A DNA stretch of 64,000 bases, taken from assembly GCA_903912795.1 (NCBI GenBank), contig CAIWIS010000237.1, positions 15,736-79,735 of the forward strand. Reading direction: 5' to 3'. Source of the DNA: an uncultured Bacteroidales bacterium. Its GTDB lineage: Bacteria; Bacteroidota; Bacteroidia; Bacteroidales; Paludibacteraceae. Both the position numbers and the translations under genes were made by a program. This document shows positions 4,291 to 61,695 of this stretch, piece by piece. Below the pieces are notes generated by a model, which searched no databases, was not told the DNA's origin, and saw only the letters and a program-made list of their open reading frames with translations. Each line of letters starts with the position of its first letter. The first letter of the stretch is position 1.

Positions 4291-4686
4291 TTAGGGATTA
4301 AATATGTTAGATTTACGATCTCCACGGTCTTTAATATCTAAATGAACCCAACCTTTAGTTTTTTCAGGATTTTCTAACCAAAGTCCTAATTCTTTTAATT
4401 TACCTTGTTTATCCATCTCTAAAGCAAATTCGGCTAATTTACCGTCTTTATCAACAAAATCGCAAGCTAACCCCTTCATATGATTGGACTTTTTAGCTCC
4501 ACCAATTTTTTTATTAATGGTATCAGGTCTCCATCCACTAGAAACTGACATAGGAATTCCGTATAAATCCCTAAATTTATTCAAAAGAATCAATAGTTTA
4601 TCTATATTATCCGATACTTCTTGAGTATAATCTTCAGGAAATTGTTTATCACGATTCATTAAAATTTCAGATTTAGTTATGCTCAT
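4291..4686 (-). CDS. peptidase M15 family (zinc D-Ala-D-Ala carboxypeptidase/L-Ala-D-Glu peptidase-like), candidate endolysin
   Basis: 131 aa. SGWRP, H-x6-D (HMKGLACD) and WVHLD zinc-ligand motifs typical of M15/VanY-like phage peptidases. Confidence 0.75.
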   Translation of the reverse strand: MSITKSEILMNRDKQFPEDYTQEVSDNIDKLLILLNKFRDLYGIPMSVSSGWRPDTINKKIGGAKKSNHMKGLACDFVDKDGKLAEFALEMDKQGKLKELGLWLENPEKTKGWVHLDIKDRGDRKSNIFNP

Positions 4687-4701
4687 AAATAAACTTGTTA
4701 A
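4686..4701 (-). promoter_or_regulatory. late-promoter-like motif TTAACAAGT-N6-A, predicted leaderless start
   Basis: Minus strand reads TTAACAAGTttatttATG. The invariant A at +7 is the A of the M15 start codon, and there is no SD. Confidence 0.45.
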
Positions 4702-4753
4702 TACCGCTTGACTTAATCGACTATTTATAGTACCATTAATAGTGAGGTGAAAA

Positions 4754-5440
4754 ATGATTAACGATTTAGGTATGTATGTTCAAGCAGATGGTGATGTAGG
4801 TGACGCTACACATAGAACAGGTCTAGCTGCAGGTTTAAATTTATTGCTTGGTAATGAGCAAAGAGCTAAAGAAATTAAAGACATTTTAATTAAAAATTGT
4901 GAAGTTAGTTCTGGAGTTTGGATTAGACATCCAGGAGGCCATCAACCTACTTATACAAATCAAATTACTAATATGTCTAGAGATCAAGTTTGTCGAGTAA
5001 TGTTTGCTATGGCAGTTCTTGGTGAAAAAAATGTTATTAAACATTGGCTTTTACAAATGACTAAAAGATGTTTTTTACATCAAAATAATTGTGATCCTAC
5101 AAATGGTAGTTGGCGACCAAGAGATGTAATGACTATTGGTGAATGGCGAAATATTATTAGAGGATTAAATCTTTGGGTATTATATCCTGTACTTGTAGTA
5201 TTCGATTTAGTATTTCTTTTAGAAATTCCAATCAGAAGTAAATGGGATGGCGGTAGTATGTTATATCCAGATATTTACTTTGCTACTAAAAAATTTCCAA
5301 CACCATTTGCTTTTTTAGCTAAATACGCAATTAAAAAAACTACATGTTTAGATGAAATTATGAATAACCATGATCCCATTCATAAAAATGGATGTGCTGA
5401 ACTTCAACCATTATTTAAACAATTGTCGGAGAAAATGTAA
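4754..5440 (+). CDS. hypothetical protein with C-terminal hydrophobic segment
   Basis: 228 aa, GAGGTG SD. Plus-strand island inside the minus-strand virion module. TTGACT and TAATCGACT (4714-4722) lie upstream. Confidence 0.6.
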   Translation: MINDLGMYVQADGDVGDATHRTGLAAGLNLLLGNEQRAKEIKDILIKNCEVSSGVWIRHPGGHQPTYTNQITNMSRDQVCRVMFAMAVLGEKNVIKHWLLQMTKRCFLHQNNCDPTNGSWRPRDVMTIGEWRNIIRGLNLWVLYPVLVVFDLVFLLEIPIRSKWDGGSMLYPDIYFATKKFPTPFAFLAKYAIKKTTCLDEIMNNHDPIHKNGCAELQPLFKQLSEKM

Positions 5441-5657: not shown

Positions 5658-5884
5658 AATTAACTATTTATCCGGAAATATGTTGTGAAGTATGTAATGA
5701 GGTAATCCATAATCATGTGGATTGCCCTGTTTGTAAATATAAATATGCTGGAACTAGTGAATATGGCGATATTCTTTATATGGATATTGGTGAAATATTA
5801 GAATGTGAAGTATGTAAAGCTAAATTTAAATTAATTAGTAAAGATAAATTTATTAGTGAATTTGAATGGGAACAATTAACTTAA
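5654..5884 (+). CDS. zinc-ribbon protein
   Basis: 76 aa with CCEVC..., CPVC and CEVC pairs. The GTGA overlap with the previous gene suggests translational coupling. Confidence 0.55.
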   Translation: MKLTIYPEICCEVCNEVIHNHVDCPVCKYKYAGTSEYGDILYMDIGEILECEVCKAKFKLISKDKFISEFEWEQLT

Positions 5885-7338
5885 ATTCTTTTCGGATATT
5901 TCATTGGCTCCCATAATTTAGGGAGCTTTTCTTTTCCATAATTTAATAATAATACATATTTACCTTTTGGTAATTGTTTAATTTTTTCACATTCATTCAT
6001 TTTATTTCTTGCATAAATTTTTAATTCTTCTGGTAATTTTGAATAAATTTGAAATCCATTATTTTTAGTCCAAGATATATCCCATACTATATTCAATTCT
6101 TTAGCCCATTTTTTCATAGAAGAAGTTCTAGTAAAATAGCGACTATTAACAATTTGTCCTTCAGGAAGTTTGTACATAGTTTCTGCTCCATATTTTTGGC
6201 CTAAATAATCAAAATTACAAGCTTGATAAATAGTACCAATTTCGCCAGCACTAGGATCAGAATATGCGACGAAATATCTTTTATTAGTATTTTTTACCAT
6301 CCATCGACAAGCAAACATAACTAACCTACTATTAAGATTTTTAGGTGCCCAACTTGATACTGCACCACGTTGAATTAATGCTTCTTTTTCACCAAATTGA
6401 TAACTATTTGGTTCAGACAACATTACTACTCCAGCAAGTTTATTTTCCCATCTAGCAGTAAAAACCCATTTAACTCCAAATCCAACAGTTCCTAACCATT
6501 CATATTTAGCGATAAATGATCTATGCTCAGGACTAAAGCTTTCGACATTTAAAATAAAATCATTAACATTTAAATTAAATGGAAATCCTTCAGCTCTATC
6601 AGATTCTTCATTTTTATCTTTTTGAAATTTTTGCCAACATTTTGTGATTTTATTAGATTTTTCTCTATTATCTTTTTTAAATAAAGGTTGAAGATTAGTA
6701 TAATGACTTAATTCCATTAATTGTTTTTGAGTTTTGGCTGCAGTTAAAGGTATAATATGATCTATTTCCCATATTAAACCGTGGTTACTCCATGACATTC
6801 CAGAAATAAATTTAGATTCTAAATAATTAAATAAATGTTTATTACTACATCCTAAATATTCATCATATTTACTATTTTTTGATAAACCTTTATTTTTAGC
6901 GACTTCCCAAAGTCGTTTAGAAATAGCAATTCGCATTTTAAACATCGGATCACGTTTAATTCGTTCATTCCATTGTTTTTGTATTTTATCTCTATTATTT
7001 TTTTTATATTGACGATTATATTCAGAAATAAATTCTTTTTTTATTTCTCTATAAGTTTTTTTATATAAAGCTCGTTTTTCAGGATTAGCATCGCGCCATT
7101 GTTTAGATTTTAACTTACGATCTTCAGGATCTTTGTTGGATAAAATTTGCTCACGATTAGCTTCATAATACGCTTTAGCTGAAGCTTTCTTTTTTTCTTT
7201 ATTTTTGTCATAAGCTTCTTTAGAAATAATTTTAAGACAAGGTTTACATACAAAATTTAAACCATCTTTAGTTCCAGATTTTTTACCAAATAATTCTAAG
7301 AATAATTCTTGTTCACATTTAGTACATTTTTTAGTCAC
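5881..7338 (-). CDS. Zn-ribbon + HNH endonuclease + Mom-like (GNAT-fold) domain fusion protein
   Basis: HNH core is WEIDHIIPL...NLQPLFKKDNREKSN. The C-terminal 200 aa carry FIAKYEWLG...GVVMLSEP...RGAVSSWAPKNLNSRL...FVAYSDPSAGEIGTIYQACNFDYLG, the pattern I associate with the Mu Mom family. Start moved to GTG 7338 (GAGGAG SD), because the track start at 7398 would translate through the promoter motifs. Confidence 0.5.
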   Translation of the reverse strand: MTKKCTKCEQELFLELFGKKSGTKDGLNFVCKPCLKIISKEAYDKNKEKKKASAKAYYEANREQILSNKDPEDRKLKSKQWRDANPEKRALYKKTYREIKKEFISEYNRQYKKNNRDKIQKQWNERIKRDPMFKMRIAISKRLWEVAKNKGLSKNSKYDEYLGCSNKHLFNYLESKFISGMSWSNHGLIWEIDHIIPLTAAKTQKQLMELSHYTNLQPLFKKDNREKSNKITKCWQKFQKDKNEESDRAEGFPFNLNVNDFILNVESFSPEHRSFIAKYEWLGTVGFGVKWVFTARWENKLAGVVMLSEPNSYQFGEKEALIQRGAVSSWAPKNLNSRLVMFACRWMVKNTNKRYFVAYSDPSAGEIGTIYQACNFDYLGQKYGAETMYKLPEGQIVNSRYFTRTSSMKKWAKELNIVWDISWTKNNGFQIYSKLPEELKIYARNKMNECEKIKQLPKGKYVLLLNYGKEKLPKLWEPMKYPKRI

Positions 7339-7369
7339 GGAAAAATTCTCCTCAAGTATGTATAATAAT

Positions 7370-7398
7370 ATTATATAATAACTTGTTATAGACGTCAA
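7370..7398 (-). promoter_or_regulatory. sigma-70-like promoter TTGACG-17-TATAAT, overlapping an ATAACAAGT-N6-A motif at 7374-7389
   Basis: Minus strand reads TTGACGtctataacaagttattaTATAAT. Confidence 0.5.
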
Positions 7399-22501: not shown

Positions 22502-22517
22502 TAGATAAACTTGTTAA
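22502..22517 (-). promoter_or_regulatory. late-promoter-like motif TTAACAAGT-N6-A
   Basis: Minus strand reads TTAACAAGTttatctA, then AGAGGTG SD. Confidence 0.5.
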
Positions 22518-22576
22518 TCTGTATTGATTTTTAGTAAAAATAAAGATATAATAGAATAAATCATTAGGAGTCGATT

Positions 22577-24436: not shown

Positions 24437-24452
24437 TACATAGACTTGTTAA
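24437..24452 (-). promoter_or_regulatory. late-promoter-like motif TTAACAAGT-N6-A
   Basis: Minus strand reads TTAACAAGTctatgtA, then TTAGGAG SD and ATG at 24421. Confidence 0.5.
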
Positions 24453-24466
24453 TAGAAAAGTATTTA

Positions 24467-26451: not shown

Positions 26452-26467
26452 TAAAGATACTTGTTAA
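26452..26467 (-). promoter_or_regulatory. late-promoter-like motif TTAACAAGT-N6-A
   Basis: Minus strand reads TTAACAAGTatctttA, then AGGAG. Confidence 0.5.
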
Positions 26468-26476
26468 TAAATTATG

Positions 26477-26505
26477 TTGACAGTCGATTAGCATTTTGAT
26501 ATGAT
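26477..26505 (+). promoter_or_regulatory. sigma-70-like promoter TTGACA-17-TATGAT (early block)
   Basis: Read directly from the sequence. The spacer contains AGTCGATTA, the reverse complement of TAATCGACT. Confidence 0.55.
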
Positions 26506-29602: not shown

Positions 29603-30553
29603 TTAGAGTGAAATAAGGGATTTCCAATTTTCATTGTCCATAGTCCCATCCCAAAGATTAGATTTTGACATATTTGTCTTAGGATTTAAATATTGCAAAT
29701 TCCAAGGAACATGTAACCCGCAGACATCGGGATGATGTAATGGTATGATGTGGTCAACGTGGTTATCGTTTTTATTTTCATAAAAGTCGATTAATTCTTT
29801 TTTATAAAATTTACTAATTTTTTGCTTACATTCTTTCTTTCTAATTTTTTTAAGTTCTTTTCGAGCTTTAATTGCTGCAGGGCTATGTCCAGATTTACAA
29901 TAAATTCGATTTGAGCGTTTAGATTCAAATAGTTGATTACAAGTTGGACAGGTTTTATTATAAACTTTTTTGTTATTTTCCAATTTAATTTTATGCGGTT
30001 TACAAGTATCAGAACAATACCGTTTCCGATTTAATGTTGGAGCACAGCAAGTTTTACATTTTGATGAAGATTTGTGTTTATAGTGTTTTTTAACTTTACA
30101 AGAATTAGAACATACCTTTTGCTTGGAATAGAATGTTTCAAATTGTTTTAAACAAGTTTCACAATTTTTAATAAAACTTTTACGCGGAGGTTTTATTTTT
30201 TTAGCACGTCGAGTTTTTTCTATTTCAGCATAACAATTAGGGCACACTCGACCATGCCAAAGTCTTCCGTCATCACCCTTATATATTCCTGAATTATGTT
30301 CATTCTTACCTAAATAGATTCGAGTAAATGTATTTAAACATATTCTACATTGCTTTTGTTCAGATTCACCAATACTTGAAGCTGATCTTAAAAGTCGATT
30401 ACGTTCTAGACGTTTAATTTTACAATCAGTACACACATTACTTGTCCAGATTTTATTAGGATGATCTGGAAATTCAGTATAGCCTAAATTGGTCAAATTA
30501 TAATATTTACTTTCTTTACAGCAAGTGCAAACTTTTTTATTTAATAGTTCCAT
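29603..30553 (-). CDS. multi-zinc-ribbon HNH endonuclease
   Basis: 316 aa with about ten CxxC pairs. C-terminal HNH core [10 protein letters not shown]...[19 protein letters not shown]. Confidence 0.75.
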
Positions 30554-30568
30554 ATAAATACTTGTTAA
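30553..30568 (-). promoter_or_regulatory. late-promoter-like motif TTAACAAGT-N6-A, predicted leaderless start
   Basis: Minus strand reads TTAACAAGTatttatATG, the same 6-nt spacing to the ATG as at 4686-4701. Confidence 0.45.
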
Positions 30569-30648
30569 CGATGTATGCGTGTAACTAGATAAAAGTCTAA
30601 ACGTGTGTGTGAGCTATACACAATCTTTAATCATCTCATACCATCCTA

Positions 30649-30657
30649 CCCCCCCCC
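30649..30657 (+). repeat. C9 homopolymer tract
   Basis: cctaCCCCCCCCCtgc in an otherwise AT-rich non-coding region. Confidence 0.9.
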
Positions 30658-30690
30658 TGCATCAATCATGCCAATCCCTATATGATACAC

Positions 30691-30878
30691 CGGCATATAA
30701 CTTGCAATAGCATTAGGCATGCCAACTCATTAGGCATATAGATTGTATTATACAAATACTATTCCACACAACACATTACACATTGGCATATAACTTGCAT
30801 GTAGTTAATTCAATTAACATGTTGGCATAAGCTTTGCATACTTTTGTTAATGCGAACTTGTGAGCATTAATTTTGCAT
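30691..30878 (+). promoter_or_regulatory. tandem array of sigma-54-type (-24/-12) promoter-like elements
   Basis: cGGCATataacTTGCAa (30691-30707), aGGCATatagaTTGTAt (30732-30748, weak), TGGCATataacTTGCAt (30784-30800), TGGCATaagctTTGCAt (30823-30839), gAGCATtaattTTGCAt (30862-30878, weak). All lie on the plus strand. Confidence 0.45.
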
Positions 30879-30922
30879 ATTCAATATTCCAATATGGAAT
30901 AATATTATAAGTGAATAAGTTC

Positions 30923-31037
30923 TAATCGACTGTGTCTGAGTGAGTGTACTTCGTATCCTATCTCTTTCTTATTCATTCTTACATCTAATCGACTATTCTC
31001 ATCTTTATATAATCGACTTACTTTGAGACAATCGACT
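30923..31037 (+). repeat. four direct copies of (T)AATCGACT (iteron/operator-like)
   Basis: TAATCGACT at 30923, 30986 and 31010, and cAATCGACT at 31029. More copies occur elsewhere (see findings). Confidence 0.8.
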
Positions 31038-31295
31038 CTTGATTCGTCCATATATCGTTTATACAGCATGATATCAATAAGCCTATACATCACTAGTCTA
31101 CACCTTAGATCGTCAATCCTAAGCTAAGTCTGTGCGTCTCAATATAGTATATACTAAGTGACAATTAATGTCATTGTGTTTATAAGTTCTACATCACTTA
31201 AGCTATTAATATCTTTCAGGATTATATAATGTTCTTTAATTGTCTATAAGTTTTTCACAATTTTAGTCATTAACTCAAATATATTAGACTTAAGC

Positions 31296-31311
31296 ATGGC
31301 ATCGACCTTGC
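31296..31311 (+). promoter_or_regulatory. sigma-54-type promoter TGGCATcgaccTTGCT
   Basis: GG and GC are spaced as in the TGGCAC-N5-TTGCW consensus. Followed by ATATAGT, as at 32746. ATAAGTT boxes lie at 31182 and 31246, about -114 and -50. Confidence 0.55.
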
Positions 31312-31341
31312 TATATAGTATTATATCAAGTGAGGTATAAA

Positions 31342-31557
31342 ATGATGGATAAAATAATTATAAACAAAGCACAGACACAAGCTACTATATACTTTAATGA
31401 TGGCCGTCAATTTAATTTACACCATAGTGACGGTTTAGTGTTAGACTTAATACAAGACTTATTCTATGGATTATCTCGTGTTGAATCAAGTCTAGAGGTC
31501 ACTCAAGTTATTGAAAACGATAGTCAATTATCTTTTGACTTTATGAAAGTTGGATAA
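31342..31557 (+). CDS. hypothetical protein
   Basis: I prefer ATG 31342 (GAGG SD) to the GTG at 31330. Confidence 0.55.
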   Translation: MMDKIIINKAQTQATIYFNDGRQFNLHHSDGLVLDLIQDLFYGLSRVESSLEVTQVIENDSQLSFDFMKVG

Positions 31558-31626
31558 TATGTTAACCGCGTCAATTATATTTTTTATTTATTTTATGATA
31601 TTAGAAAAATTAACTGGGAGTTACTA

Positions 31627-31746
31627 ATGGACAGACTTATAACCTTTTTTGTTGTACTTATGGCTTTAATTTTAATAAATGAAACTATGACAATATTGTC
31701 ACTTGATACCCAAAAGAATATTGAAACAATTTTAATTAATAAATAA
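31627..31746 (+). CDS. 39-aa membrane peptide (below the track cut-off)
   Basis: GGGAG SD. MDRLITFFVVLMALILINETMTILSLDTQKNIETILINK. Confidence 0.4.
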   Translation: MDRLITFFVVLMALILINETMTILSLDTQKNIETILINK

Positions 31747-31760
31747 TATTAGGAGTTTAT

Positions 31761-31952
31761 ATGGGAAACTATTATCAAAATCAATTAAAAAAATTGACTA
31801 ATTTTAAAGCGATTAATATTAAATTAAGTGACTTTGAAGGCAATTCAACTAATAACATGGACTTAAATCTTGAGTCAATTCAAACACTTAAGGCATTTTT
31901 GTCTAAACTTGAAACGGACTTAATTAAAGCTAACGTAAAGAGTGAGGTTTAA
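31761..31952 (+). CDS. hypothetical protein
   Basis: 63 aa, AGGAG SD. Confidence 0.55.
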   Translation: MGNYYQNQLKKLTNFKAINIKLSDFEGNSTNNMDLNLESIQTLKAFLSKLETDLIKANVKSEV

Positions 31953-31957
31953 TTTAT

Positions 31958-32146
31958 ATGGCATTAAGTTTGCATGACATTAAAATCATTCAATACAGGA
32001 ATAAAATTGTCACAAGACTTCGTTCTAGAGTAAAGCATTTTGGCACTAAATTAAATTATTATGAGATTAGGTTATCTCAAATTGATGCAGCTTATCCTGA
32101 ATTAAGAGGTAAAGGTATTATAGACTTGAAAGGTGTTTCAAAATGA
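31958..32146 (+). CDS. hypothetical protein
   Basis: 62 aa, GAGG SD. Confidence 0.55.
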   Translation: MALSLHDIKIIQYRNKIVTRLRSRVKHFGTKLNYYEIRLSQIDAAYPELRGKGIIDLKGVSK

Positions 32147-32256
32147 AAATATATATAGTTAGATCAATTAAATCGTCGTCTCAATATAAAACATTCACTA
32201 AGCGTCTAGATGCAATACGTTTCATTATGAGACATCCCGAATATTATATGGAATAA
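32143..32256 (+). CDS. 37-aa hypothetical protein (below the track cut-off)
   Basis: ATGA start/stop overlap with the previous gene. MKIYIVRSIKSSSQYKTFTKRLDAIRFIMRHPEYYME. Confidence 0.35.
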   Translation: MKIYIVRSIKSSSQYKTFTKRLDAIRFIMRHPEYYME

Positions 32257-32569
32257 ATAGAGTACACCGTGAAATTATTGTGGACACAGCGTAAAGCGTT
32301 CGACGCTGCGAGCGTCTCACTTTGAAGCGCGATAACTTGTCTCATTCTGGACATAGCAAGGCCACTACGGCACGTTTTGTTTCAGTTTGAGACATCATGC
32401 TATGTCTTAATTCAAACTTAATGTTTCATAGCTAGAAATCTCATTTTGAGACTTCAGTCGAGTATTGACTCGGTGTAGTGAGCTTGACTCACTCTTTGCC
32501 TATCCCTTGCGGTATCACTATGAAACAACGCGGCAGCCTTGATTTTTAAACTAATACTGGCACGTTTCT
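32257..32569 (-). ncRNA. candidate ~310-nt structured non-coding RNA (strand inferred from the promoter motif)
   Basis: No ORF of 60 aa or more, and GC clearly above the flanks. 9-bp long-range helices GACATAGCA (32350-58)/TGCTATGTC (32398-406) and GTTTCATAG (32423-31)/CTATGAAAC (32518-26). Hairpins at 32302-16, 32459-72 and 32477-93, the last two both carrying TTGACTC. A TTAACAAGT-N6-A motif at 32569-32584 points into the segment. Confidence 0.45.
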
Positions 32570-32584
32570 TTAATAACTTGTTAA
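32569..32584 (-). promoter_or_regulatory. late-promoter-like motif TTAACAAGT-N6-A with no ORF downstream
   Basis: Minus strand reads TTAACAAGTtattaaA, followed by the GC-rich structured segment. Confidence 0.45.
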
Positions 32585-32745
32585 TAATAACATGTTTTAA
32601 TATGATATGTCAAACTTATTTTTTTATAAATAAGTTATACAGCAAGCAAGTTATTGATTTTATTTTGTTAATTGAATTATTTATAAAAACATATATAAGT
32701 TATACACTGAAAATATTGTTAACTCTCATATATTTGATTTAACCT

Positions 32746-32761
32746 TGGCATCTCGCTTGCT
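32746..32761 (+). promoter_or_regulatory. sigma-54-type promoter TGGCATctcgcTTGCT (amidoligase operon)
   Basis: Followed by the same ATATAGT as at 31312. A 12-nt direct repeat ATAAGTTATACA lies at 32630-41 and 32695-706, about -116 and -51. Confidence 0.55.
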
Positions 32762-32806
32762 ATATAGTTAAGTATCGAGTAACTGATAAAAAAAAAGGAT
32801 GTAAAC

Positions 32807-33832
32807 ATGAAAAACTTTAAAATTGAAAATAATAAAATCGTTATAGACATGAGCGCGATTAAGTCAAAAAAGCATTTATACAATTTTAATATGATGGTCG
32901 GCAAAAATAAACTTAACGATGCGCTGTCTTATCTTGATTCGTTTAATGGTGTCAGAGCGAGAAATCTTTCCTTTAATTCGAATAAAAATTCATTGTGTCG
33001 AGATGTATTAAATGTAAATAAAGACAAATATTTTAAAATATATAACTCAATGTTAGATGCTAATAAACAACACAATCCGATTTCTTTTGATACGCAATAT
33101 TTTGGCGTGGAAATTGAGTGTTTTATACCTTATATTGCAACGTGTACTAATGGCGATATAGATGATTCGACACATAGCAATCAACGCGAATTAAAAAAAT
33201 TGTTTAGCCAAAACAAAATTAAGTTTGCCACTGTAAAAAGCGACGGTTCAATTCGAGAAACTGAAGGTCACTTTCCGGTTGAAATTACAATTTTGACAAA
33301 ATTTAACGACACATCAAATTTGCAAAAAGCATGTGAATTATTAAACAATTTAGGCGCAAAAGTGAATAAATCGTGCGGTTTACATGTGCATTTAGACTCG
33401 CGTAATTTGAGCGAAAGTCAAGTTTTAGAAATTGGGAAAAATTTTAAAAAAGCTTTACCCGTTTTATTAAAGATGGTTCCTAAATCGAGACGCGATAATT
33501 CGTATTGCAGAGCGTCTGTCTCAAAAATGTCAGGACAAAGATATCATGCTGTAAATTTAACAGCGTTTAGTAAATATAAAACAATTGAAATTCGATTGCA
33601 CAGCTCAACAACTGATTTTAATAAAATTATGAACTGGGCTAATTTACTTAACGCCATTAAAAAAAGTACGATCAAAAAAACTTGTCAAAATATTAATGAT
33701 TTAACAGACTACATTAAAATTGACGAAAATTTATTAGAATATGTCGCACAACGCACAGCATTATTTAATGGCGAGAGTGACATATCAATTTCAGCGAAAG
33801 ATCTAGATAATACCGACAGTAACGCAGCATAA
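32807..33832 (+). CDS. amidoligase (glutamine-synthetase-like COOH-NH2 ligase, Amidoligase_2-type)
   Basis: 341 aa. FGVEIECF, SDGSIRE, PVEITILT, CGLHVHLD, YHAVNL and IEIRLHSST occur in the order typical of this family. Confidence 0.7.
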   Translation: MKNFKIENNKIVIDMSAIKSKKHLYNFNMMVGKNKLNDALSYLDSFNGVRARNLSFNSNKNSLCRDVLNVNKDKYFKIYNSMLDANKQHNPISFDTQYFGVEIECFIPYIATCTNGDIDDSTHSNQRELKKLFSQNKIKFATVKSDGSIRETEGHFPVEITILTKFNDTSNLQKACELLNNLGAKVNKSCGLHVHLDSRNLSESQVLEIGKNFKKALPVLLKMVPKSRRDNSYCRASVSKMSGQRYHAVNLTAFSKYKTIEIRLHSSTTDFNKIMNWANLLNAIKKSTIKKTCQNINDLTDYIKIDENLLEYVAQRTALFNGESDISISAKDLDNTDSNAA

Positions 33833-33864
33833 TTTTTTTTAATTAATTTTTAAAGGAGTTTTAT

Positions 33865-34902
33865 ATGTGTAAAATTTTTGTATTAACGAATATGAATAAA
33901 ATTAAAAAAGTTGACAATACTATTAATACGATTATGAATAATCTTGCATATTATGAAAAAGATGGACTAGGCTACACTATTCAAGGGAGTGACGGCATTT
34001 TTGGCGAAAGAAGTACAGACACTAAAAATTTTAGTACTTCATTCGAGCAACCGATGTTAACTTTACCTTTTTTAGAACAATCCTATAACCGCTTTGGAGT
34101 TAAATCTGAAATTATTGGCGGGGGAATATTTCACGGCCGAACATCAACTAATCACAAAAATATAACTAATACGCATCCGATCAATAAACATGGATGGTCA
34201 CTTATTCATAACGGCGTTGTAACCAACCACGGTCCAGAATATAAGCAACACACAACTAACGATAGCGAGCATTTAGTCGAATTAATAGGAACTGTAGGAA
34301 TCAAAGGCATTGAACGCTATTTAACCGGATATTATGCCGCTGCAGCATTTAGTCCAGACAATAAATTGCATATATTTAGAGATAGTATTGCAACGCTTTA
34401 TTTTTGTCATATTCAAAGTATTGATTCGTACGCTATAGCGACAACTATGGACTTATTACAAGACACACTCGCTGAATTAAAATTAAAACATAGCAAAATC
34501 TCAGCAATTAAAGACAATCAATATATTGTGTTAAATAAAAATATTATTGAAAGTGTTCAAACTATTAAACCGAAAGGCCGCACAGCATACGAATCGAAAT
34601 ATTCGGAGTTAAGTCTCGGTCGTAAATTAGACATAACAGAACATATTAGTCAAGAAATGACACTATTAAGTTTAGTTGAAAATGATTCAACTTATACTGA
34701 ATCGCAACTATTATTTATTGAAGAAATAAAAAACTATGCGGATCATACTTACACGTTTTTAGATTTTAGAGGCAATGCTTTGACGCTAGCAGACTTTAAC
34801 GCGTTAGAACTTGACGAAAAATTTATTTGTACGGTAATTAGATCTGACGGCACAGTAGTCAATGCGTATGACTATCATACCGATCGTATTTACATGGGCT
34901 AG
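33865..34902 (+). CDS. class II (Ntn) glutamine amidotransferase-like protein with a C-terminal extension
   Basis: 345 aa. Starts MCKIF (Cys2 nucleophile), with GRTSTN, HPI..HGWSLIHNGVVTNH and NDSEHLVEL. AGGAG SD. Confidence 0.65.
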   Translation: MCKIFVLTNMNKIKKVDNTINTIMNNLAYYEKDGLGYTIQGSDGIFGERSTDTKNFSTSFEQPMLTLPFLEQSYNRFGVKSEIIGGGIFHGRTSTNHKNITNTHPINKHGWSLIHNGVVTNHGPEYKQHTTNDSEHLVELIGTVGIKGIERYLTGYYAAAAFSPDNKLHIFRDSIATLYFCHIQSIDSYAIATTMDLLQDTLAELKLKHSKISAIKDNQYIVLNKNIIESVQTIKPKGRTAYESKYSELSLGRKLDITEHISQEMTLLSLVENDSTYTESQLLFIEEIKNYADHTYTFLDFRGNALTLADFNALELDEKFICTVIRSDGTVVNAYDYHTDRIYMG

Positions 34903-36360: not shown

Positions 36361-36480
36361 ATGAAACATTGTTTAATAATTTTAACTTGTTTATCTGTTA
36401 ATAAAAATTTATTAAATTTAAAAAATATAGCTAATGTTATTCAACCTAAACAACCTGTTATAGTTTTGACTAACAAATAA
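36361..36480 (+). CDS. 39-aa hypothetical protein (below the track cut-off)
   Basis: AAGGA SD. MKHCLIILTCLSVNKNLLNLKNIANVIQPKQPVIVLTNK. Confidence 0.35.
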   Translation: MKHCLIILTCLSVNKNLLNLKNIANVIQPKQPVIVLTNK

Positions 36481-36513
36481 ACGCTATACGCACGCACGCT
36501 TTCCTAAGAGGGG
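36481..36513 (+). repeat. (CG)n-CTTTCCTAA junction element, copy D
   Basis: ACGCTATACGCACGCACGCTTTCCTAAGAGGGG, directly before the ATG at 36519. Confidence 0.8.
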
Positions 36514-36518
36514 ATTAT

Positions 36519-36720: not shown

Positions 36721-36786
36721 ATGTTTGACAATACTTTTTTTATAATGTTAGTTATTGTTTGTATTTATTTAAGTTTTAAAATATAA
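36721..36786 (+). CDS. 21-aa hydrophobic peptide, MFD family
   Basis: MFDNTFFIMLVIVCIYLSFKI. The TAACATGTTTGAC context is the same as at 35750. Confidence 0.3.
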   Translation: MFDNTFFIMLVIVCIYLSFKI

Positions 36787-36795
36787 TTAAAATAA

Positions 36796-36826
36796 ACGCT
36801 ATACGCGCGCGCGCTTTCCTAAGAGG
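36796..36826 (+). repeat. (CG)n-CTTTCCTAA junction element, copy E
   Basis: ACGCTATACGCGCGCGCGCTTTCCTAAGAGG, before the ATG at 36836. Confidence 0.85.
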
Positions 36827-36835
36827 AAATATTTT

Positions 36836-52203: not shown

Positions 52204-53769
52204 ATGTATTCTAATCAACTTATTTTTGGTAAAAATCAATTAACTAATATTGCTAGTGTTGAAGTTGATGGCGATAATTTAATTATTTTTCAGGAAAAAA
52301 ATGGGGAATTTGGTGAATTAACGACATCAGTTTTTCCTGCAACATATTGGTTTATTACTAATAAACGTATTTCACAAAAACAAATAGAACTTGAAGGAAA
52401 TCAATATTATAAATATTTAGCTGAATTTTCTTCTTTAGAAGAATATGAAAAAGTTAGATCTTTATTATATCAAAAACGTATAGATTTTTATACTATTTGG
52501 GATAAAAAAGAAGCTAATATGGTTCGTCAGGGCATTACTTATTATAAAGGTTTGCAACCTAAAGATATCAGCGTATTATCATTTGATATTGAATCTGATG
52601 GATTAAATAAAACTAAAAATTCTGAAATATATATTATTACTAATACTTTTAGACGAGGTGAAGAAATAATTCGTCAATCTTTCTTTTTAGATGATTATGA
52701 TACTCAAGCTGAAATGATTGATGATTGGTGTTTTTTTGTTAGAACAATGGACCCTAGTATTATTTTGGGACATAATATATTTTCATATGACTTTCCATAT
52801 TTAGCTCATGTTGCTGCATTGAATAATACAAGTTTAAAATTAGGTAGAGATGAATCTGATATTAGATTTAATGATAAAGCTTCTAGTTTTAGAAAAGATG
52901 GAAGTCAAAGTTATGAATACAATAAAGCTTTTATTTTTGGTCGTGAATTGGTTGATACTATGTTTTTATCAATTAAGTATGATGTTGCTAGAAATTTTCC
53001 ATCGTATGGTTTAAAATCAATTGTTAAACATTTAGGTATGGAAAAAGAAGGTCGAAGTTTTGTTGATGCTAGTAAAATTAAACATTTTTATAATGAAAGA
53101 ATTAAATTTCCTGAAATGTGGGATAAAACTAAAGCTTATGCTGAAGAAGATTCGGATGATGCTTTAAAACTATATGATTTAATGTCGCCTAGCTTTTTTT
53201 ACATGACACAAAATATTAGTAAAACTTATCAAGAAATTAATTGTGGAGCTACTGGTTCTCAAATTAATAATATGATGGTTCGTAGTTATTTTCAATTAAA
53301 TCATAGTATTGCTAAAGCTAGTGAAGCAGAACCTTTTGAAGGAGGCATTTCACTAGGAGTTCCTGGAATATATAAAAACTGTTTAAAGTGGGATTTAGCA
53401 TCTGCATATCCTCACACTATTATACAATACAATTTATATGATAAACGCAAAGATCCTGCCGGTAATTTTTTAACGATGGTAAAATATTTTACTAAAGCTC
53501 GTATTCAAAATAAAAAACTAGCCAAAGAAACGAATTTAATTTACTATAAAGATTTGGAACAAAGTCAAAAAATAGTGATAAATAGTTTTTTTGGATTTTG
53601 TGGGGCTACAGGATTAAATTATAACGCACCAGCTATTGCCGCAGAAATTACTAGACGTTGTCGCGGTTATATTATAGAATCAATAAAATGGGCAACAGGA
53701 CAAGAATTAGATTATTGGAAATTGAAATCCTCTGGAGAAGAATTAGATGAAGAAAAGCGGGATTTATAA
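52204..53769 (+). CDS. family B DNA polymerase, N-terminal fragment (exonuclease, motif A, motif B)
   Basis: ExoI FDIESDG, ExoII GHNIFSYDFPYL, ExoIII YAEEDSDD, motif A DLASAYPH, motif B KIVINSFFGF. Stops about 10 codons before where motif C is expected. Confidence 0.85.
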   Translation: MYSNQLIFGKNQLTNIASVEVDGDNLIIFQEKNGEFGELTTSVFPATYWFITNKRISQKQIELEGNQYYKYLAEFSSLEEYEKVRSLLYQKRIDFYTIWDKKEANMVRQGITYYKGLQPKDISVLSFDIESDGLNKTKNSEIYIITNTFRRGEEIIRQSFFLDDYDTQAEMIDDWCFFVRTMDPSIILGHNIFSYDFPYLAHVAALNNTSLKLGRDESDIRFNDKASSFRKDGSQSYEYNKAFIFGRELVDTMFLSIKYDVARNFPSYGLKSIVKHLGMEKEGRSFVDASKIKHFYNERIKFPEMWDKTKAYAEEDSDDALKLYDLMSPSFFYMTQNISKTYQEINCGATGSQINNMMVRSYFQLNHSIAKASEAEPFEGGISLGVPGIYKNCLKWDLASAYPHTIIQYNLYDKRKDPAGNFLTMVKYFTKARIQNKKLAKETNLIYYKDLEQSQKIVINSFFGFCGATGLNYNAPAIAAEITRRCRGYIIESIKWATGQELDYWKLKSSGEELDEEKRDL

Positions 53770-54451
53770 AATTATTAATTTAATTAATAATAAATTCTAT
53801 ATAGGATCTTCTATTGATTTAGATAATAGATTTAAAAATCATATAGCTATGTTAAATAAAAATACGCATATTAATATAAAATTACAAAGAGCCTGGAATA
53901 AATATGGACAAAACAATTTCATATTTCATATTATCGAATTTTGTTCTTCAAATAAATGTTTAGAATTAGAACAATTTTATTTAAATTCGATTATGGGGTT
54001 TTATAATATCGCTTCAAACGCTTCTGCACCTATGACAAATAGAAAACATAATCAAAAAACTTTAGATAAATTAAAAGGTCGAAAATGTTGGAATAAAGGA
54101 ATTAAAAGGACTGAAGCTGAAAAACTTTTAATGTCTAAAAATAGAAAATTGGCTTATCAAAACATGGACCAAAAATCTATTGAAATATGGAAACAAAAAA
54201 TTCGCCAAAATCCTAATAAATATTGGACCAATAAAAAGCTTCCTGAAGAAATGAAACAAAAAATTAGCGATTTTTGGAAAAATAAAAATAATTTCAATTT
54301 ATTATGTGAACAAAATAATAAATTATATTCAACACAATTAGAAGCAGCAAAAGATTTAAAAATTAAACAAGGTCATATTAGTGAACATTTAAATGACAAA
54401 AGATCTAATGTTTTTGGATATACTTTTAAAAAGGTATTAAAAAATGTATAA
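53747..54451 (+). CDS. GIY-YIG homing endonuclease (I-TevI/Seg-like)
   Basis: GIYKIIN...KFYIGSS...R..NH, followed by NUMOD3-like GRKCWNKGIKRTEAEK. Overlaps both polymerase fragments. Confidence 0.85.
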   Translation: MKKSGIYKIINLINNKFYIGSSIDLDNRFKNHIAMLNKNTHINIKLQRAWNKYGQNNFIFHIIEFCSSNKCLELEQFYLNSIMGFYNIASNASAPMTNRKHNQKTLDKLKGRKCWNKGIKRTEAEKLLMSKNRKLAYQNMDQKSIEIWKQKIRQNPNKYWTNKKLPEEMKQKISDFWKNKNNFNLLCEQNNKLYSTQLEAAKDLKIKQGHISEHLNDKRSNVFGYTFKKVLKNV

Positions 54452-55217
54452 TTTTAAATTAGTTAATGCAGATACCGATTCGATAATGGTTTGTAAAGAA
54501 AATGGTGAACTATTTAGCGTTGAAGAACAACAAGCTTTAATTGGCGAACTAAACAACATGTTTCCTGAACATATCAACTGGGATGAGGATGGATATTTTA
54601 GTTCAGTAGTTGTTATAAAGGCTAAAAATTACGTTTTAAAAGAACATGAAACTAATAAAATTAAAATTAAAGGATCAGGATTAAAAGATAGTAAAAAAGA
54701 ATTTGCTATGCGAGAAATGATGAGTAAAATTGTAGAAGCATTACTCAATCATGAAATTGATAAAATTCAAGAAATTTATGAATCATATATTAAAGAAGCA
54801 ATTTTAGTTAAAGATATTATGCGTTGGTCACAAAAAAAGACTGTTACGGAATCAGTTTTAAACTGTGCTAATGGTGAAGGTCGTAAAAATGAGATGGATG
54901 TCTATAAAGCTATCGAAAATGAAACAGTTCAAGCCGGAGATAAAATTTATTTATATCCAGTAATATTTGGAACAGAAGTTATTCCTGGAGGAATATCTGA
55001 AAAAACTGGTAAACCGCTTAAAGATAAAACAGTTGAAATTACTGGTTTAAAATTAGCTCAAAATTGGTCTAATGACCATGATGTTGATAAATTATTAGAT
55101 CGAGTATATGCCACTATAAAAATTTTTAAATCGGTTATTGACATTAATCAATTTGTAGATTATACTAAAAAAAGTAATCACGAATTATTAAAGCAATTAA
55201 AAAGGAATATACTTTGA
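54444..55217 (+). CDS. family B DNA polymerase, C-terminal fragment (motif C and thumb)
   Basis: Starts MYNFKLVNADTDSIMV (motif C, DTDS); 257 aa. Confidence 0.8.
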   Translation: MYNFKLVNADTDSIMVCKENGELFSVEEQQALIGELNNMFPEHINWDEDGYFSSVVVIKAKNYVLKEHETNKIKIKGSGLKDSKKEFAMREMMSKIVEALLNHEIDKIQEIYESYIKEAILVKDIMRWSQKKTVTESVLNCANGEGRKNEMDVYKAIENETVQAGDKIYLYPVIFGTEVIPGGISEKTGKPLKDKTVEITGLKLAQNWSNDHDVDKLLDRVYATIKIFKSVIDINQFVDYTKKSNHELLKQLKRNIL

Positions 55218-56239: not shown

Positions 56240-56475
56240 TGAATAATTTAATTCACTTGGAAGAGTTAATACTTGCTAAAAAAGTTTGTGAAGACTTTCC
56301 AAGTGCTATTAGAAAGATTGACATTTGTCACGATCAATTGTATAATTATAAAGAATATATTGATATTATGCGAGTAATTAGACAATTAGAAGAATCTAAA
56401 TATATGATGGAATTAACTTTAGAAGTTTATACTCAAGTTTTAAAAAATGCTAGAGGAATTGATGAGCAAAAATAA
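56239..56475 (+). CDS. hypothetical protein
   Basis: 78 aa, TAATG overlap. Confidence 0.55.
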   Translation: MNNLIHLEELILAKKVCEDFPSAIRKIDICHDQLYNYKEYIDIMRVIRQLEESKYMMELTLEVYTQVLKNARGIDEQK

Positions 56476-58051
56476 TATAAAAAATAAAATTTTAGAAACT
56501 TTCATTAAACTTATAAAAGAAAAAAAAATGACACCAAGTCGTTCTGAGCTTCATAAAGCTGGAATAACTCAAGATATGTATAGACATCATTTTAAAACTA
56601 TTGCAGGTCTTAAAGAAGCGGCTAGACAAAAAGATCCTAAAGCATTTGAACAAATGATTGATGAAACAGTTTTTAGTCCTAAAATTCTTAAAAAACTTAA
56701 AGGTGAAGTAAAAAAATATAATAAATTTGTAATTACAACTGCAGTCACTGGAATGTCAGTACACAGTGCTTTTTATAAAAATTTAAAATTTTATTGTGAA
56801 AAAAATAATGCTAAACTTTTAATTCTTCCTAGCACAGATCCTGCAGCTATTGCTGGATTTGAAATTGATGGTGGTTTATTTAATGAATCAATTGTTGTTC
56901 AAGATTTAGCTTTAAACGACAATTTAATGATTTCAACATTTAAAACGTCTGCTAAACAAATTAATCCTTTGACTGGTCTTCGTCGCATGGGTCGTCGTGA
57001 AAGATCTATGATTGTCGCAAGTCCTAAACAATTTTTAGAATATGTACCTATAGCTAATGATGCAATGTCTCATGCTTTAATGACAACTGGAGCAATTACT
57101 AAACCTCAATATCACACAGAACGATATATGTCACTTAGAACTGCATATATTGCTGAATTAGATCATAAACTTGGCGCAATTGTTGTTGAGTTACAAGATA
57201 ATAAAACTTTTCACTTTAGACAAATTCAAGCTGAATATGGCACTGGATTTTTTATAGATAATGGTATTTATTATAAAATAAATAAAACTACATCAATTCG
57301 ACCTGAAGCTTTAGTATTAGGCGATATTCATGTAGGTTCATTAAGTGGTGATGTAATTCAAACTACAGATGATATTATTTCAACTTTAAAACCTAAACGT
57401 GTATTTTTACATGATTTATTTGATGGCGTTTCTTGTAATCCACATGCTTCAGCTCAATATTTAACTAGAGCTAAATTTACATTATCACAATTAAGTATTG
57501 AAGAAGAATTAAAATTGGTTAAAGAATATTTAACTGAAATGAGAGCAAAACATTCGTGTGTTGAGGAATGGGTTATTGTTCGATCAAACCATGATTTATT
57601 TTTAGATAGACTTCTCGATTCTGGTGACTATATTAAAGATCCTATTAATAGTAAAATCTGTCATAAATTGGCTTCACTTAAACTTGACGGAAAAATGCCT
57701 TTACAAGAAGGTTTAAAATTGGTGGGCTTAAATGTATCTAAAATTAAATTTTTATCCATTAATGATAGCTATAGAATTGCTGGAATTGAACATGGAGTTC
57801 ACGGACATTTAGGATTAAATGGTCAAAGAAATCCTGGTAATTCTAGTTTAGAAATTGCTTATGGTTCAGGAACATTTGCTCATAGTCATTCTGCTGGTAT
57901 TCTTCGGGATATTTTTAGAGTAGGTACTTCTACTGAAATGCGCCTTGGTTATAATAATGGCGCATCTAGTTGGACTAATACTTGTTGTCCAACTTATGCT
58001 AATGGTAGTCGCCAATTAATTAATGATATTAATGGTAAATGGAGAATTTAA
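56462..58051 (+). CDS. calcineurin-like metallophosphoesterase with an N-terminal extension
   Basis: Ordered motifs GDIHVG, HDLFDG, RSNHD, HGVHGH and HSHSAG. I prefer the start at 56462 (AGAGGA SD). Confidence 0.6.
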   Translation: MSKNNIKNKILETFIKLIKEKKMTPSRSELHKAGITQDMYRHHFKTIAGLKEAARQKDPKAFEQMIDETVFSPKILKKLKGEVKKYNKFVITTAVTGMSVHSAFYKNLKFYCEKNNAKLLILPSTDPAAIAGFEIDGGLFNESIVVQDLALNDNLMISTFKTSAKQINPLTGLRRMGRRERSMIVASPKQFLEYVPIANDAMSHALMTTGAITKPQYHTERYMSLRTAYIAELDHKLGAIVVELQDNKTFHFRQIQAEYGTGFFIDNGIYYKINKTTSIRPEALVLGDIHVGSLSGDVIQTTDDIISTLKPKRVFLHDLFDGVSCNPHASAQYLTRAKFTLSQLSIEEELKLVKEYLTEMRAKHSCVEEWVIVRSNHDLFLDRLLDSGDYIKDPINSKICHKLASLKLDGKMPLQEGLKLVGLNVSKIKFLSINDSYRIAGIEHGVHGHLGLNGQRNPGNSSLEIAYGSGTFAHSHSAGILRDIFRVGTSTEMRLGYNNGASSWTNTCCPTYANGSRQLINDINGKWRI

Positions 58052-59129: not shown

Positions 59130-59751
59130 AATACCGAATAAAAAAGCTTCAGATGAAGCTGAACAATCATCAGAGGATTTAGATTATATTATTTCAGGAG
59201 TTGATTTAGAATCTCGACGAATTGAATTTCGTGGAGAAGTTAATGAAACAATGTCGTCTATTATAATTCGTTCATTACTTAAAATGAGCGAAAAATCATT
59301 ATCGCCCATTGAAATATACCTTTCTAGTCCTGGCGGAGATGTATATGAAGGATTGGCAATTTATGATGCAATAATGGCATGTCCTTGTGATATTCATATT
59401 ATAGCTTCAGGAAAAATTATGTCAGCAGCTTTTATAATTTTCTTAGCTGGAGACATAAGATTAGCTGCCCCACATACAACATTTATGATGCACTCAGTTT
59501 CATATGATCCTGGTAATGGTATTGTAAAAAGCCATGAAGTACAAGTAAATGAAGGTAAAAGAATTAATAATGTATTTTTAGATATTATGTCTTCTAGAAC
59601 TAATCGTAATAAAAAATGGTGGTATAGAACTATTTTGAATCAAGATAAATATTTAAATTTACAAGATGCTATTGAAGTTGGTATAATTAAAATGGCACAA
59701 CAAATTAAAAAACCTATCAAGAAAGTAGTAAAGAAAAATGTCAGAAAATAA
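59116..59751 (+). CDS. ClpP-family (S14) serine peptidase
   Basis: LSSPGGDVYEGLAIYDAI, Ser in GKIMSAAF, His in FMMHSV, C-terminal Asp region. The start is ambiguous (59104/59116/59122). Confidence 0.75.
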   Translation: MKMIRIPNKKASDEAEQSSEDLDYIISGVDLESRRIEFRGEVNETMSSIIIRSLLKMSEKSLSPIEIYLSSPGGDVYEGLAIYDAIMACPCDIHIIASGKIMSAAFIIFLAGDIRLAAPHTTFMMHSVSYDPGNGIVKSHEVQVNEGKRINNVFLDIMSSRTNRNKKWWYRTILNQDKYLNLQDAIEVGIIKMAQQIKKPIKKVVKKNVRK

Positions 59752-60163
59752 TAAATCAATGGGACAAAAAAATGATCAAGAAAAACCAGATCTTTCGCTT
59801 ATTCCAACTGACGCATTATGGGGTATGGCAAAAGCTTTAACTTATGGTGCTAGAAAATATGACAAACATAATTTTCGTAAAGGAATTGCTTATTCAAGAT
59901 TAATAGCCGCAACGATGCGACATCTTTCAGCTTTTAATGAAGGTGAAAATAACGATACTGAAAGTAGTTTATCTCATATAGATCATGCAATGGCATCTTT
60001 AGCAATGCTTAAATTTATGATGGAAAATCAATCTCGAATGGATGATAGATATATTGCACCTAAAAATATTTTAAATGAATCAACCAAAGATCCAGAAATT
60101 AATATAATTAATGATGAAACGCGGTATCTTATGGGTATGAAAATTCAAATGAGAGGGCGATAA
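59738..60163 (+). CDS. dATP/dGTP diphosphohydrolase N-terminal-domain-like (DUF5664/MazG-like) protein
   Basis: KPDLSLIPTDALWGMAKALTYGARKYDKHNFRKG...RHLSAF..GE..D.ES.LSHIDHA matches my recollection of that family. Confidence 0.55.
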   Translation: MSENNKSMGQKNDQEKPDLSLIPTDALWGMAKALTYGARKYDKHNFRKGIAYSRLIAATMRHLSAFNEGENNDTESSLSHIDHAMASLAMLKFMMENQSRMDDRYIAPKNILNESTKDPEINIINDETRYLMGMKIQMRGR

Positions 60164-61482: not shown

Positions 61483-61695
61483 ATGGAAGCTATAGTTATT
61501 TTAAAAAAATCTAGAGAGGCCCTACAAAATAGGGCTTTACATTGTAATGATAAAATGGAACAATTACAATTAGAGATTGATAATTATAAAATAGAACTTG
61601 AAGATTGTATCAATAAAATACAAAATTTAAGTGAAGCTATAGATAAACTGGAGAATAAAAATGAATCTACAAGTAAAAGTAAAAAAACTAAGTGA
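61483..61695 (+). CDS. coiled-coil protein
   Basis: 70 aa. Confidence 0.5.
   Translation: MEAIVILKKSREALQNRALHCNDKMEQLQLEIDNYKIELEDCINKIQNLSEAIDKLENKNESTSKSKKTK

Follow-up and report, generated by a model that had tools for sequence, protein, structure and literature searches.

Elements near the junction of two gene arms

The 64-kb stretch of DNA analysed here (the window) is part of an uncultured, podovirus-like phage from lake-water metagenomes, and this report concerns a set of short elements within it that resemble sigma-54 promoters, namely two putative promoters, P1 and P2, and a cluster of similar sites upstream of them. The same genes occur on contigs of 81,385 and 81,425 bp, which indicates a phage genome of about 81.4 kb. 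Genes of the window are arranged in two arms. The − strand from 815 to 30553 encodes terminase, portal, capsid and tail-like genes; the + strand from 31342 onwards carries small open reading frames (ORFs), an amidoligase, a glutamine amidotransferase-like protein, ribonucleotide reductase, an exonuclease, ERF, a primase-helicase, a split family-B polymerase, two AAA+ ATPases, ClpP and dUTPase. The 17 kb beyond the window are structural, with faint matches to SU10-type portal and adaptor proteins. Megablast of the window region against INPHARED returned no matches, tblastn with the terminase and the amidoligase revealed no close cultured relative, and the terminase is at most 27 % identical to that of any cultured phage. 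The elements lie where the two arms meet, in a gap of 789 bp (30554-31342), and in the large gap that follows (32257-32806), and are listed with the other features of the window in Table 1.

The exact motif GGCAY-N5-TTGCW occurs six times in the 64 kb, compared with 0.31 +/- 0.54 occurrences expected from shuffles, with 0 of 100 shuffles reaching this number. All six are on the + strand and are confined to the 2.1 kb between 30692 and 32761. Judged by the pattern TGGCAC-N5-TTGCW, the GG and GC doublets are exactly 10 bp apart in P1, P2 and the four further exact elements. Short degenerate motifs are frequent in AT-rich genomes, and a search allowing one mismatch displays merely an approximately twofold enrichment (13 elements versus 7.06 expected), as might be anticipated if the elements were chance matches in AT-rich DNA. 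Set against the excess of exact copies, their clustering on a single strand and their retention in relatives, however, a chance origin is effectively refuted and can be excluded.

P1 and P2 are the central parts of a direct repeat of 73 nt, whose two copies (75 % identical) each extend to the ribosome-binding site of the first gene in a + strand operon. An initial annotation of this DNA, made from the sequence alone, had cited a number of strings, all of which are present at exactly the positions given save for P1, which begins at 31297 rather than 31296. It had also placed both promoters 35-45 nt upstream of their operons; each does precede a + strand operon, although the distance from the end of the motif to the ATG is 30 nt for P1 and 46 nt for P2. 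Counted from the GC doublet, the ATG follows after 31 and 47 nt, respectively, in the orientation appropriate for a promoter. Neither the cluster, which has mixed orientation and is about 450 nt from the next ORF, nor the sixth exact element, which overlaps the ATG of ORF 31958, displays such an arrangement, although in the relative L019 (see below) the equivalent of this element is located 58 nt 5′ of the homologous gene. The five small ORFs of the P1 operon have no Pfam match, and the 62-aa example is retained in the relatives L019 and L022.

Both promoters are preceded by two boxes containing ATAAGTT, found at the positions originally described, and the 12-nt repeat ATAAGTTATACA at 32630 and 32695 is indeed perfect. 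The distances first assigned to these boxes, about −115 and −50, were counted from the start of the motif; when the C of the GC doublet is taken as −12, they are instead at −141 (P1) or −142 (P2) and at −77 from the predicted starts. They occupy the same positions in both promoters, and their proposed role as enhancer-binding sites is hypothetical. With up to one mismatch allowed, three of the five matches to ATAAGTTATACA across the window fall in the two upstream regions. Boxes of this type are partly kept in relatives, and are not clear inverted repeats. Between the two boxes of P2, at −106 to −93 (32666-32679), is a palindrome that is a near-copy of GTTAATTCAATTAAC from the cluster.

The cluster itself had been described as a tandem array of five elements. 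These were recovered, with the examples at 30692, 30785 and 30824 exact and those at 30733 and 30863 bearing one mismatch, but the arrangement is not that of a simple tandem promoter array. Two reverse elements are also present (30658-30672 and 30709-30723), the latter forming with the element at 30692 the one convergent pair of the window array, and the corresponding clusters of relatives are likewise two-way. These reverse elements had been overlooked, as had the sixth exact element (31959-31974) and the C9 tract adjoining the cluster. The length of this C tract (30648-30657) differs between samples, with one run containing an extra C. No DnaA boxes were seen in 30550-31340. The four direct copies of TAATCGACT at 30921-31038 have single counterparts at about 4715 and 26483 (inverted), which fall within the spacers of two promoter-like sites. 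Logan contigs run through the array with flat depth and without ends, and are uninformative with regard to genome termini.

Table 1. Positions of the elements, operons and other features of the window; starts are predicted, and SD denotes a Shine–Dalgarno sequence
Feature	Position	Strand	Sequence and remarks
Copies of candidate late-promoter or leader motif	4693-4703, 8880 region, 22509-22518, 24444-24454, 26459-26469, 30560-30569, 32576-32586		TATTAACAAGT (gene strand)
C9 tract	30649-30657	+	Directly left of site cluster
Reverse near-consensus element	30658-30672	−	GGCATGATTGATGCA; one mismatch; beside C tract
Array element 1	30692-30706	+	GGCATATAACTTGCA; exact
Reverse element	30709-30723	−	GGCATGCCTAATGCT; one mismatch; convergent partner of element 1 (TTGC-N4-GCAT)
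Array element 2	30733-30747	+	GGCATATAGATTGTA; one mismatch; followed by inverted TACAA half
Array element 3	30785-30799	+	GGCATATAACTTGCA; exact
Perfect 7+1+7 palindrome	30804-30818		GTTAATTCAATTAAC; between elements 3 and 4
Array element 4	30824-30838	+	GGCATAAGCTTTGCA; exact
Array element 5	30863-30877	+	AGCATTAATTTTGCA; one mismatch
Four direct copies	30921-31038	+	(T)AATCGACT; untranslated stretch from array to P1
Upstream box of P1	31182-31193	+	ATAAGTTCTACA; −141 from predicted start
Upstream box of P1	31246-31257	+	ATAAGTTTTTCA; −77 from predicted start
P1 block	31270-31342	+	Core TGGCATCGACCTTGCTATATAGT at 31297-31319; predicted start about 31323; SD GAGG, then ATG 31342
P1 operon	31342-32256	+	Five small ORFs (71, 39, 63, 62 and 37 aa)
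Sixth exact element	31959-31974	+	TGGCATTAAGTTTGCA; overlaps start codon of ORF 31958
Upstream box of P2	32630-32641	+	ATAAGTTATACA; −142 from predicted start
Upstream box of P2	32695-32706	+	ATAAGTTATACA; −77 from predicted start
P2 block	32719-32791	+	Core TGGCATCTCGCTTGCTATATAGT at 32746-32768; predicted start about 32772; ATG 32807
P2 operon, first genes	32807-34902	+	Amidoligase (PF12224), glutamine amidotransferase-like protein
Split polymerase, N part	52204-53769		
Endonuclease within polymerase	53747-54451		
Split polymerase, C part	54444-55217		

Conservation in relatives and palindromic arrays elsewhere

Whilst a single-protein search for related loci returned nothing, an alignment-based search with the amidoligase just 3′ of P2 did yield relatives. 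These are distant, with amidoligases of 32-45 % identity and a GC content of 31-39 %, and show the same layout of C tract, array and P1-like promoter. One of them, L019, is an 87-kb contig (38.6 % GC; amidoligase 44 % identical) that harbours a C-rich tract, four or five GGCAY-N5-TTGCA elements, TAATCGACT, a P1 homologue reading 'tcaaatata…agacaTGGCATtgtcaTTGCTatat' (L019:3651) and the first small ORF. A counterpart of P2 is located at L019:4982, and further elements are found 5′ of the ORF 31958 homologue and of the operon leading to the amidoligase. The (T)AATCGACT motif occurs at the same place in L019 as in the window, and L022, which has a P1 homologue at L022:371, carries a copy of AATCGACT 3′ of its array. 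In L022, L023, L030-L033, L037 and L054 the cluster is 2.5-4.5 kb 5′ of the amidoligase, or under 1 kb in the case of L032, and in most of them has a C-rich tract beside it; that of L030 is G-rich on this strand. In L019, L031, L033 and L037 the C-rich tract ('ccctaccccccct') adjoins the first element, like that of the window. Throughout L019 and these eight loci the half-sites are invariant and the five spacer bases are variable, which is the signature of a bipartite recognition site.

Two further observations concern individual loci. In L016, outside the window, an element of the form GGCATTAAAGTTGCTATAT with a downstream sequence of the P1/P2 type is present at 5671-5685 (−), within an ORF of 109 aa where the − strand block ends, and may be a chance occurrence. 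In L030, positions 1709-2461 encode a homologue (36 % identical) of the window AAA+ ATPase at 60555-61481, situated some 900 bp from the array, with transcription leading away from the latter.

Relatives display elements in both orientations, often as convergent GGCAY-N5-TTGC-N(3-9)-GCAA-N5-RTGCC pairs or as back-to-back pairs. The convergent palindrome with an N4 centre is present in at least 120 IMG/VR stretches with GC contents of 30-68 %, for which chance would supply only a handful (our chance figures for scans of collections are rough estimates). Its consensus is ttGGCAC(G/A)nTTCTTGC-wwwn-GCAAGAAn(C/T)GTGCCaa. In a set of 91 palindromes, between 8 and 14 of the 14 positions in the arms are paired, with 8 or 9 of these forced by the pattern itself. 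A reading of the palindromes as hairpins or terminators was rejected, as the spacers of these 91 do not co-vary; with arms that are not complementary in the spacer, each half is an independent, asymmetric sigma-54-like site.

A BLAST search of cultured phages with the consensus, which is of low power, identified as carriers the Vibrio phages D260, D254, D51, VCPH, pVp-1 and VPT02, as well as Pseudomonas phage vB_PpS_SYP. In the three of these examined (D260, VPT02 and SYP) the elements are situated in a repeat-rich non-coding region equivalent to the injection stop signal (iss) of T5. Within VPT02 (L348, 2990-4340), two-way sigma-54-like elements flank DnaA boxes and palindromes; two-way elements in an iss-like non-coding region of T5-like phages were likewise seen in L236 and L237. 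The cultured phages closest by TerL to two array-bearing contigs infect Proteobacteria, and Bradyrhizobium phage ppBjS10J-1 and Acetobacter phage phiAX1, two cultured phages related by TerL to array contigs, are without arrays.

With regard to bacteria, a stricter form of the palindrome was found in 107 stretches from 596 Gb of bacterial genomes. Most of these are one intergenic repeat of about 130 bp in saprophytic Leptospira, and were counted as a single event. This repeat recurs about every 1 kb in a manner reminiscent of a cassette array (L247, L267 and many of L241-L347), and has the core TGGCATTCGCCTTGCGTTCGCAAGCTACATGCCA. The majority of other matches derive from metagenome-assembled genomes of Methylococcaceae, Flavobacterium, Lachnospiraceae, Burkholderiaceae, Pirellulaceae and Pseudobdellovibrionaceae. 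Among the 80 of 107 stretches listed, none is from Actinobacteria or Cyanobacteria, neither of which is known to have sigma-54. Given the rarity of the palindrome in bacterial genomes, the arrays are mainly a phage feature. We found no description in the literature of convergent, two-way elements at cellular sigma-54 promoters.

Sigma-54 and other candidate readers of the elements

The identity of the elements was assessed using 41 examples, gathered from the window and nine relatives by GGCAY-N5-TTGC alone, in which the positions not used for selection were then scored. T is present at −26 in 30 of 41, position −20 holds G in 22 and A in a further 12, −19 is a purine in 34, and −11 is A or T in every case. 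These scored free positions (−26, −20, −19 and −11) are the degenerate positions of the sigma-54 consensus TGGCACGRNNNTTGCW (PMC3707914, after Barrios et al. 1999), and they fit it. Both the residues with which sigma-54 binds DNA and its promoter consensus are conserved across phyla (PMC3162934). The occurrence of the same motif in viral contigs ranging from 30 to 68 % GC suits a binder whose specificity is conserved across phyla.

Should sigma-54 read these sites, a bacterial enhancer-binding protein (bEBP) would be expected as activator, and the phage was searched for one. The claim that the window contains no AAA+ protein of the GAFTGA type holds: in a Pfam scan, in which large ORFs were examined directly and all small ORFs as concatenated pseudo-proteins, no Sigma54, Sigma70, bEBP or RNA-polymerase domain was found in the ORFs of the window, and its two AAA+ proteins match PF00004 rather than PF00158 and are without GAFTGA. 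Tblastn with PspF, used as a rough probe, and a regular expression for GAFTGA or the RpoN box gave no match, either within the window or across 2.26 Mb of retrieved loci. An extension of the bEBP search to the rest of the phage, as the initial annotation had suggested, gave the same outcome, with no Sigma54, Sigma70, bEBP or RNA-polymerase domain among the precomputed Pfam hits for the remainder of the approximately 81-kb genome.

These results also bear on whether the elements might be promoters for an unrecognised phage RNA polymerase, or sigma-like factor, that resembles sigma-54 in specificity. The long conserved block shared by P1 and P2 is reminiscent of phage-polymerase promoters, and the phage has many unannotated ORFs in which such an enzyme could reside, including proteins of 932 and 1156 aa beyond the window. 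We nevertheless consider this highly improbable, as no polymerase or sigma domain is found in the approximately 81-kb genome, promoters of this kind diverge between phages whilst the motif here is constant in unrelated contigs, and a bipartite form with a free spacer is unlike the promoters of single-subunit polymerases.

P1 and P2 are probably sigma-54 promoters, and the nearby cluster is probably one of sigma-54 binding sites, both being predictions from sequence. For P1 and P2 this is the best reading because of their single orientation, fixed distance to a gene and conserved upstream architecture. On balance, we favour a scheme in which both are read by the sigma-54 (RpoN) polymerase of the host, with the cluster at 30658-30877 serving as its two-way, near-consensus binding sites. 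The sigma-54 identity proposed in the initial annotation has survived every sequence-level test run, whilst its account of the array and of the enhancers needs revision. In this scheme, P1 would drive the operon of five small ORFs and P2 the amidoligase/amidotransferase DNA-modification genes and what comes after them. The sigma-54 holoenzyme would bind the elements and transcripts would start about 12 nt past the GC doublet (at about 31323 and 32772), with P1 and P2 remaining closed until an ATPase activator acts. This ATP-dependent activator may be a host bEBP, or else an unrecognised phage factor from the sigma-70-type early operon at 26477, and may bind at the boxes located at −77 and −141. 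As the window also contains sigma-70-type promoters and the separate motif TATTAACAAGT, the sigma-54-type sites may constitute a distinct temporal class. The cluster may provide additional promoters, take up sigma-54 as a sink, act as a roadblock, or belong to a complex for packaging, entry or replication.

A number of points weigh against this scheme. No activator for P1 and P2 emerged from the search of the phage genome. RNA-seq runs searched for the window sequence gave no match. One exact element, that at 31959, coincides with a start codon. P1 and P2 may also be read as weak sigma-70 promoters (TTAAGC or TTAACC, N18, TATAGT), a reading that was set aside since it would leave their most conserved bases (GGCAT, TTGC) unexplained within the spacer. 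A convergent pair with a gap of 3-9 bp does not allow simultaneous binding of two polymerases, and the upstream cluster is therefore more likely to be a cluster of binding sites than a set of working promoters. Additionally, the distances from one palindrome to the next show maxima at 10, 22, 32 and 44 bp, corresponding to whole helical turns, and this phasing would also suit a symmetric DNA-binding protein. Lastly, in other phages the arrays are found in non-coding DNA, often 0.2-1.2 kb 5′ of terminase genes and near locus ends, which hints at a role at the level of DNA, albeit that these ends are possibly storage boundaries and not contig ends.

It is conceivable, then, that the elements are operators or assembly sites for another symmetric, oligomeric DNA-binding protein of phage or host, with P1 and P2 being sigma-70-type promoters that contain an operator in the spacer, and the arrays acting as nucleoprotein sites for regulation, packaging, DNA entry or replication. 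Palindromic pairs with such phasing would be in keeping with this, as would arrays positioned 5′ of terS/terL in many contigs, the hexamers in P1 and P2, and the elements in the iss-equivalent region of T5-like Vibrio and Pseudomonas phages, accompanied in VPT02 by DnaA boxes. We regard such a binder as possible but rather unlikely. A phage-specific protein would be expected to co-vary with its site, yet this site is constant from 30 to 68 % GC and equals the sigma-54 consensus even at degenerate positions. Moreover, the lack of complementarity in the spacers makes each half an independent asymmetric site. A search for a shared binder gene beside the arrays revealed no universal family, the commonest, TerL-like, being present at 44 of 138 loci.

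A further reading retains the host sigma-54 polymerase but not the transcription. Here the two-way arrays would be a landing pad, or sink, on which it forms silent and very stable closed complexes, potentially titrating sigma-54 from host regulons as the phage DNA replicates, or acting as a protein roadblock or cap near a genome end during DNA entry or packaging. The same polymerase would carry out gated transcription from lone copies in a suitable orientation, of which P1 and P2 are examples. We consider this doubtful; the device would be widespread among uncultured phages, and we found no description of it in the literature.

As to known systems, cellular sigma-54 promoters share with these elements the spacing of GG and GC, T at −26, C/T at −21, G at −20, a purine at −19 and A/T at −11. 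P1 and P2 also resemble them in preceding operons with short leaders, and the repeated boxes about 77 and 141 bp upstream of P1 and P2 are at roughly the distances, some 80-150 bp, that are usual for enhancer sites. The window phage differs in being without a known bEBP, in boxes that are not clear inverted repeats, and in its two-way, convergent elements.

Sigma-54-dependent promoters are already known in phages, with YuA as the precedent. This phage depends on sigma-70 as well as on sigma-54, and a sigma-54-like promoter was found in it by 5′-end sequencing (PMC10914365). Its GenBank record (AM749441) annotates three trapped, high-activity promoters in the structural region as having a '-24/-12 consensus sequence'. 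By annotation, YuA also makes hydroxymethyl-dUMP, as needed for thymidine hypermodification. In a 2008 study by Ceyssens et al., sigma-54 dependence was reportedly confirmed in an rpoN mutant. YuA itself is not known to encode a bEBP, an indication that host factors can suffice, so the absence of one from the window phage does not count against sigma-54, and both phages would use host sigma-54 promoters without a bEBP of their own. They differ in that the YuA promoters lie in the structural/lysis region and match the consensus poorly (none fits GGCAY-N5-TTGC), whilst the window phage has near-consensus sites at the head of its non-structural + strand region together with a two-way array. Elsewhere, a gene for a sigma-54-type regulator is reported from Bdellovibrio phage φ1422 (PMC3391216).

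More distant parallels exist for the array and for the gating of its neighbours. The iss region of T5 (annotated in AY543070) is likewise a long, non-coding and repeat-rich region, and its equivalent in the T5-like phages VPT02 and vB_PpS_SYP contains two-way sigma-54-like elements; none occurs in the iss of T5 itself, however, and the window phage is not T5-like. At its leading end, phage T7 has the tandem strong host-polymerase promoters A1, A2 and A3, which are sigma-70 promoters and fire without an activator. They are similar to the window array in grouping a number of polymerase sites on one strand, in front of the genes with which the early arm begins, and differ in their sigma factor and in being at a genome end, whereas contigs run through the array. 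Late transcription in T4, which relies on gp55/gp33 and on a sliding clamp that serves as mobile enhancer (PMC2988020), provides a functional analogy only, in that a class of promoters remains silent until an energy-dependent activator acts; T4, however, supplies sigma-like proteins of its own and has a TATAAATA element instead.

The use of sigma-54 by phages is documented for one group, that of YuA. If the scheme favoured here is correct, sigma-54 sites would be common in environmental phages, many of which may recruit the host sigma-54 polymerase. Such sites would stand in front of non-structural operons, those with genes for DNA hypermodification among them, and make up dense, two-way arrays in the control regions of many unrelated phages. 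Phages would thereby have access to a second transcription channel of the host that is off until an ATPase acts, which raises the question of who supplies the activator, or whether arrays work without transcription as sinks or roadblocks. Since cultured Vibrio and Pseudomonas phages carry the palindrome, this is testable where rpoN mutants should be obtainable.

Other features of the phage genome

Canonical sigma-70-type promoters are also present in the window. That at 26477-26505 (TTGACA-N17-TATGAT with an upstream TG) is ahead of a + strand cluster of small ORFs, and others are found at about 60497, 63229 and 45033. Taken with the strong Shine–Dalgarno sites, promoters of the TTGACA-N17-TATNAT form argue against a Bacteroidota host. 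A different motif, TATTAACAAGT on the gene strand, stands 7-30 nt 5′ of the start codons of − strand structural genes, and is a candidate late-promoter or 5′-leader motif.

The copy of TATTAACAAGT at 32576 faces into non-coding DNA. One non-coding stretch, 32262-32577, is GC-richer than its surroundings and folds better than shuffled sequences (z = −3.35 for the − strand and −2.38 for the +). A strong sigma-70-like promoter (TTGACA-N18-TATTAT with TG, 32613 to 32584) faces into this stretch, which contains four repeats of the GTTTCAnTnTGAGAC type and has no Rfam match. L019 has a similar stretch in the corresponding position (about 4540-4795). The stretch may encode a phage non-coding RNA on either strand, with the − strand favoured. 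Rfam gave no match at the gathering score nor at E ≤ 1, and no tRNAs were found.

Adjoining the array on the − strand (29603-30553) is a gene for a 316-aa protein that is cysteine-rich, with many CxxC pairs, and has an HNH-like C-terminus (DHIIP...N...N), but no Pfam match. The family-B DNA polymerase (52204-55217) is interrupted by an ORF for a GIY-YIG homing endonuclease. Genes at 5881-7398, 32807-34902, 56447-58051, 59738-60163 and 61661-62104 suggest that the phage DNA is hypermodified, the candidate set comprising the amidoligase, the amidotransferase-like protein, a fusion of a Mom-like protein with an endonuclease VII-like domain, a 'DNA transfer protein' of phrog_1745, a dATP/dGTP diphosphohydrolase domain and dUTPase. 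Finally, the repeat 'ataaacgctatacgcRcgcRcgctttcctaagagg' is present at about 36470-36518 and 36785-36835, directly 5′ of ORFs 36519 and 36836.

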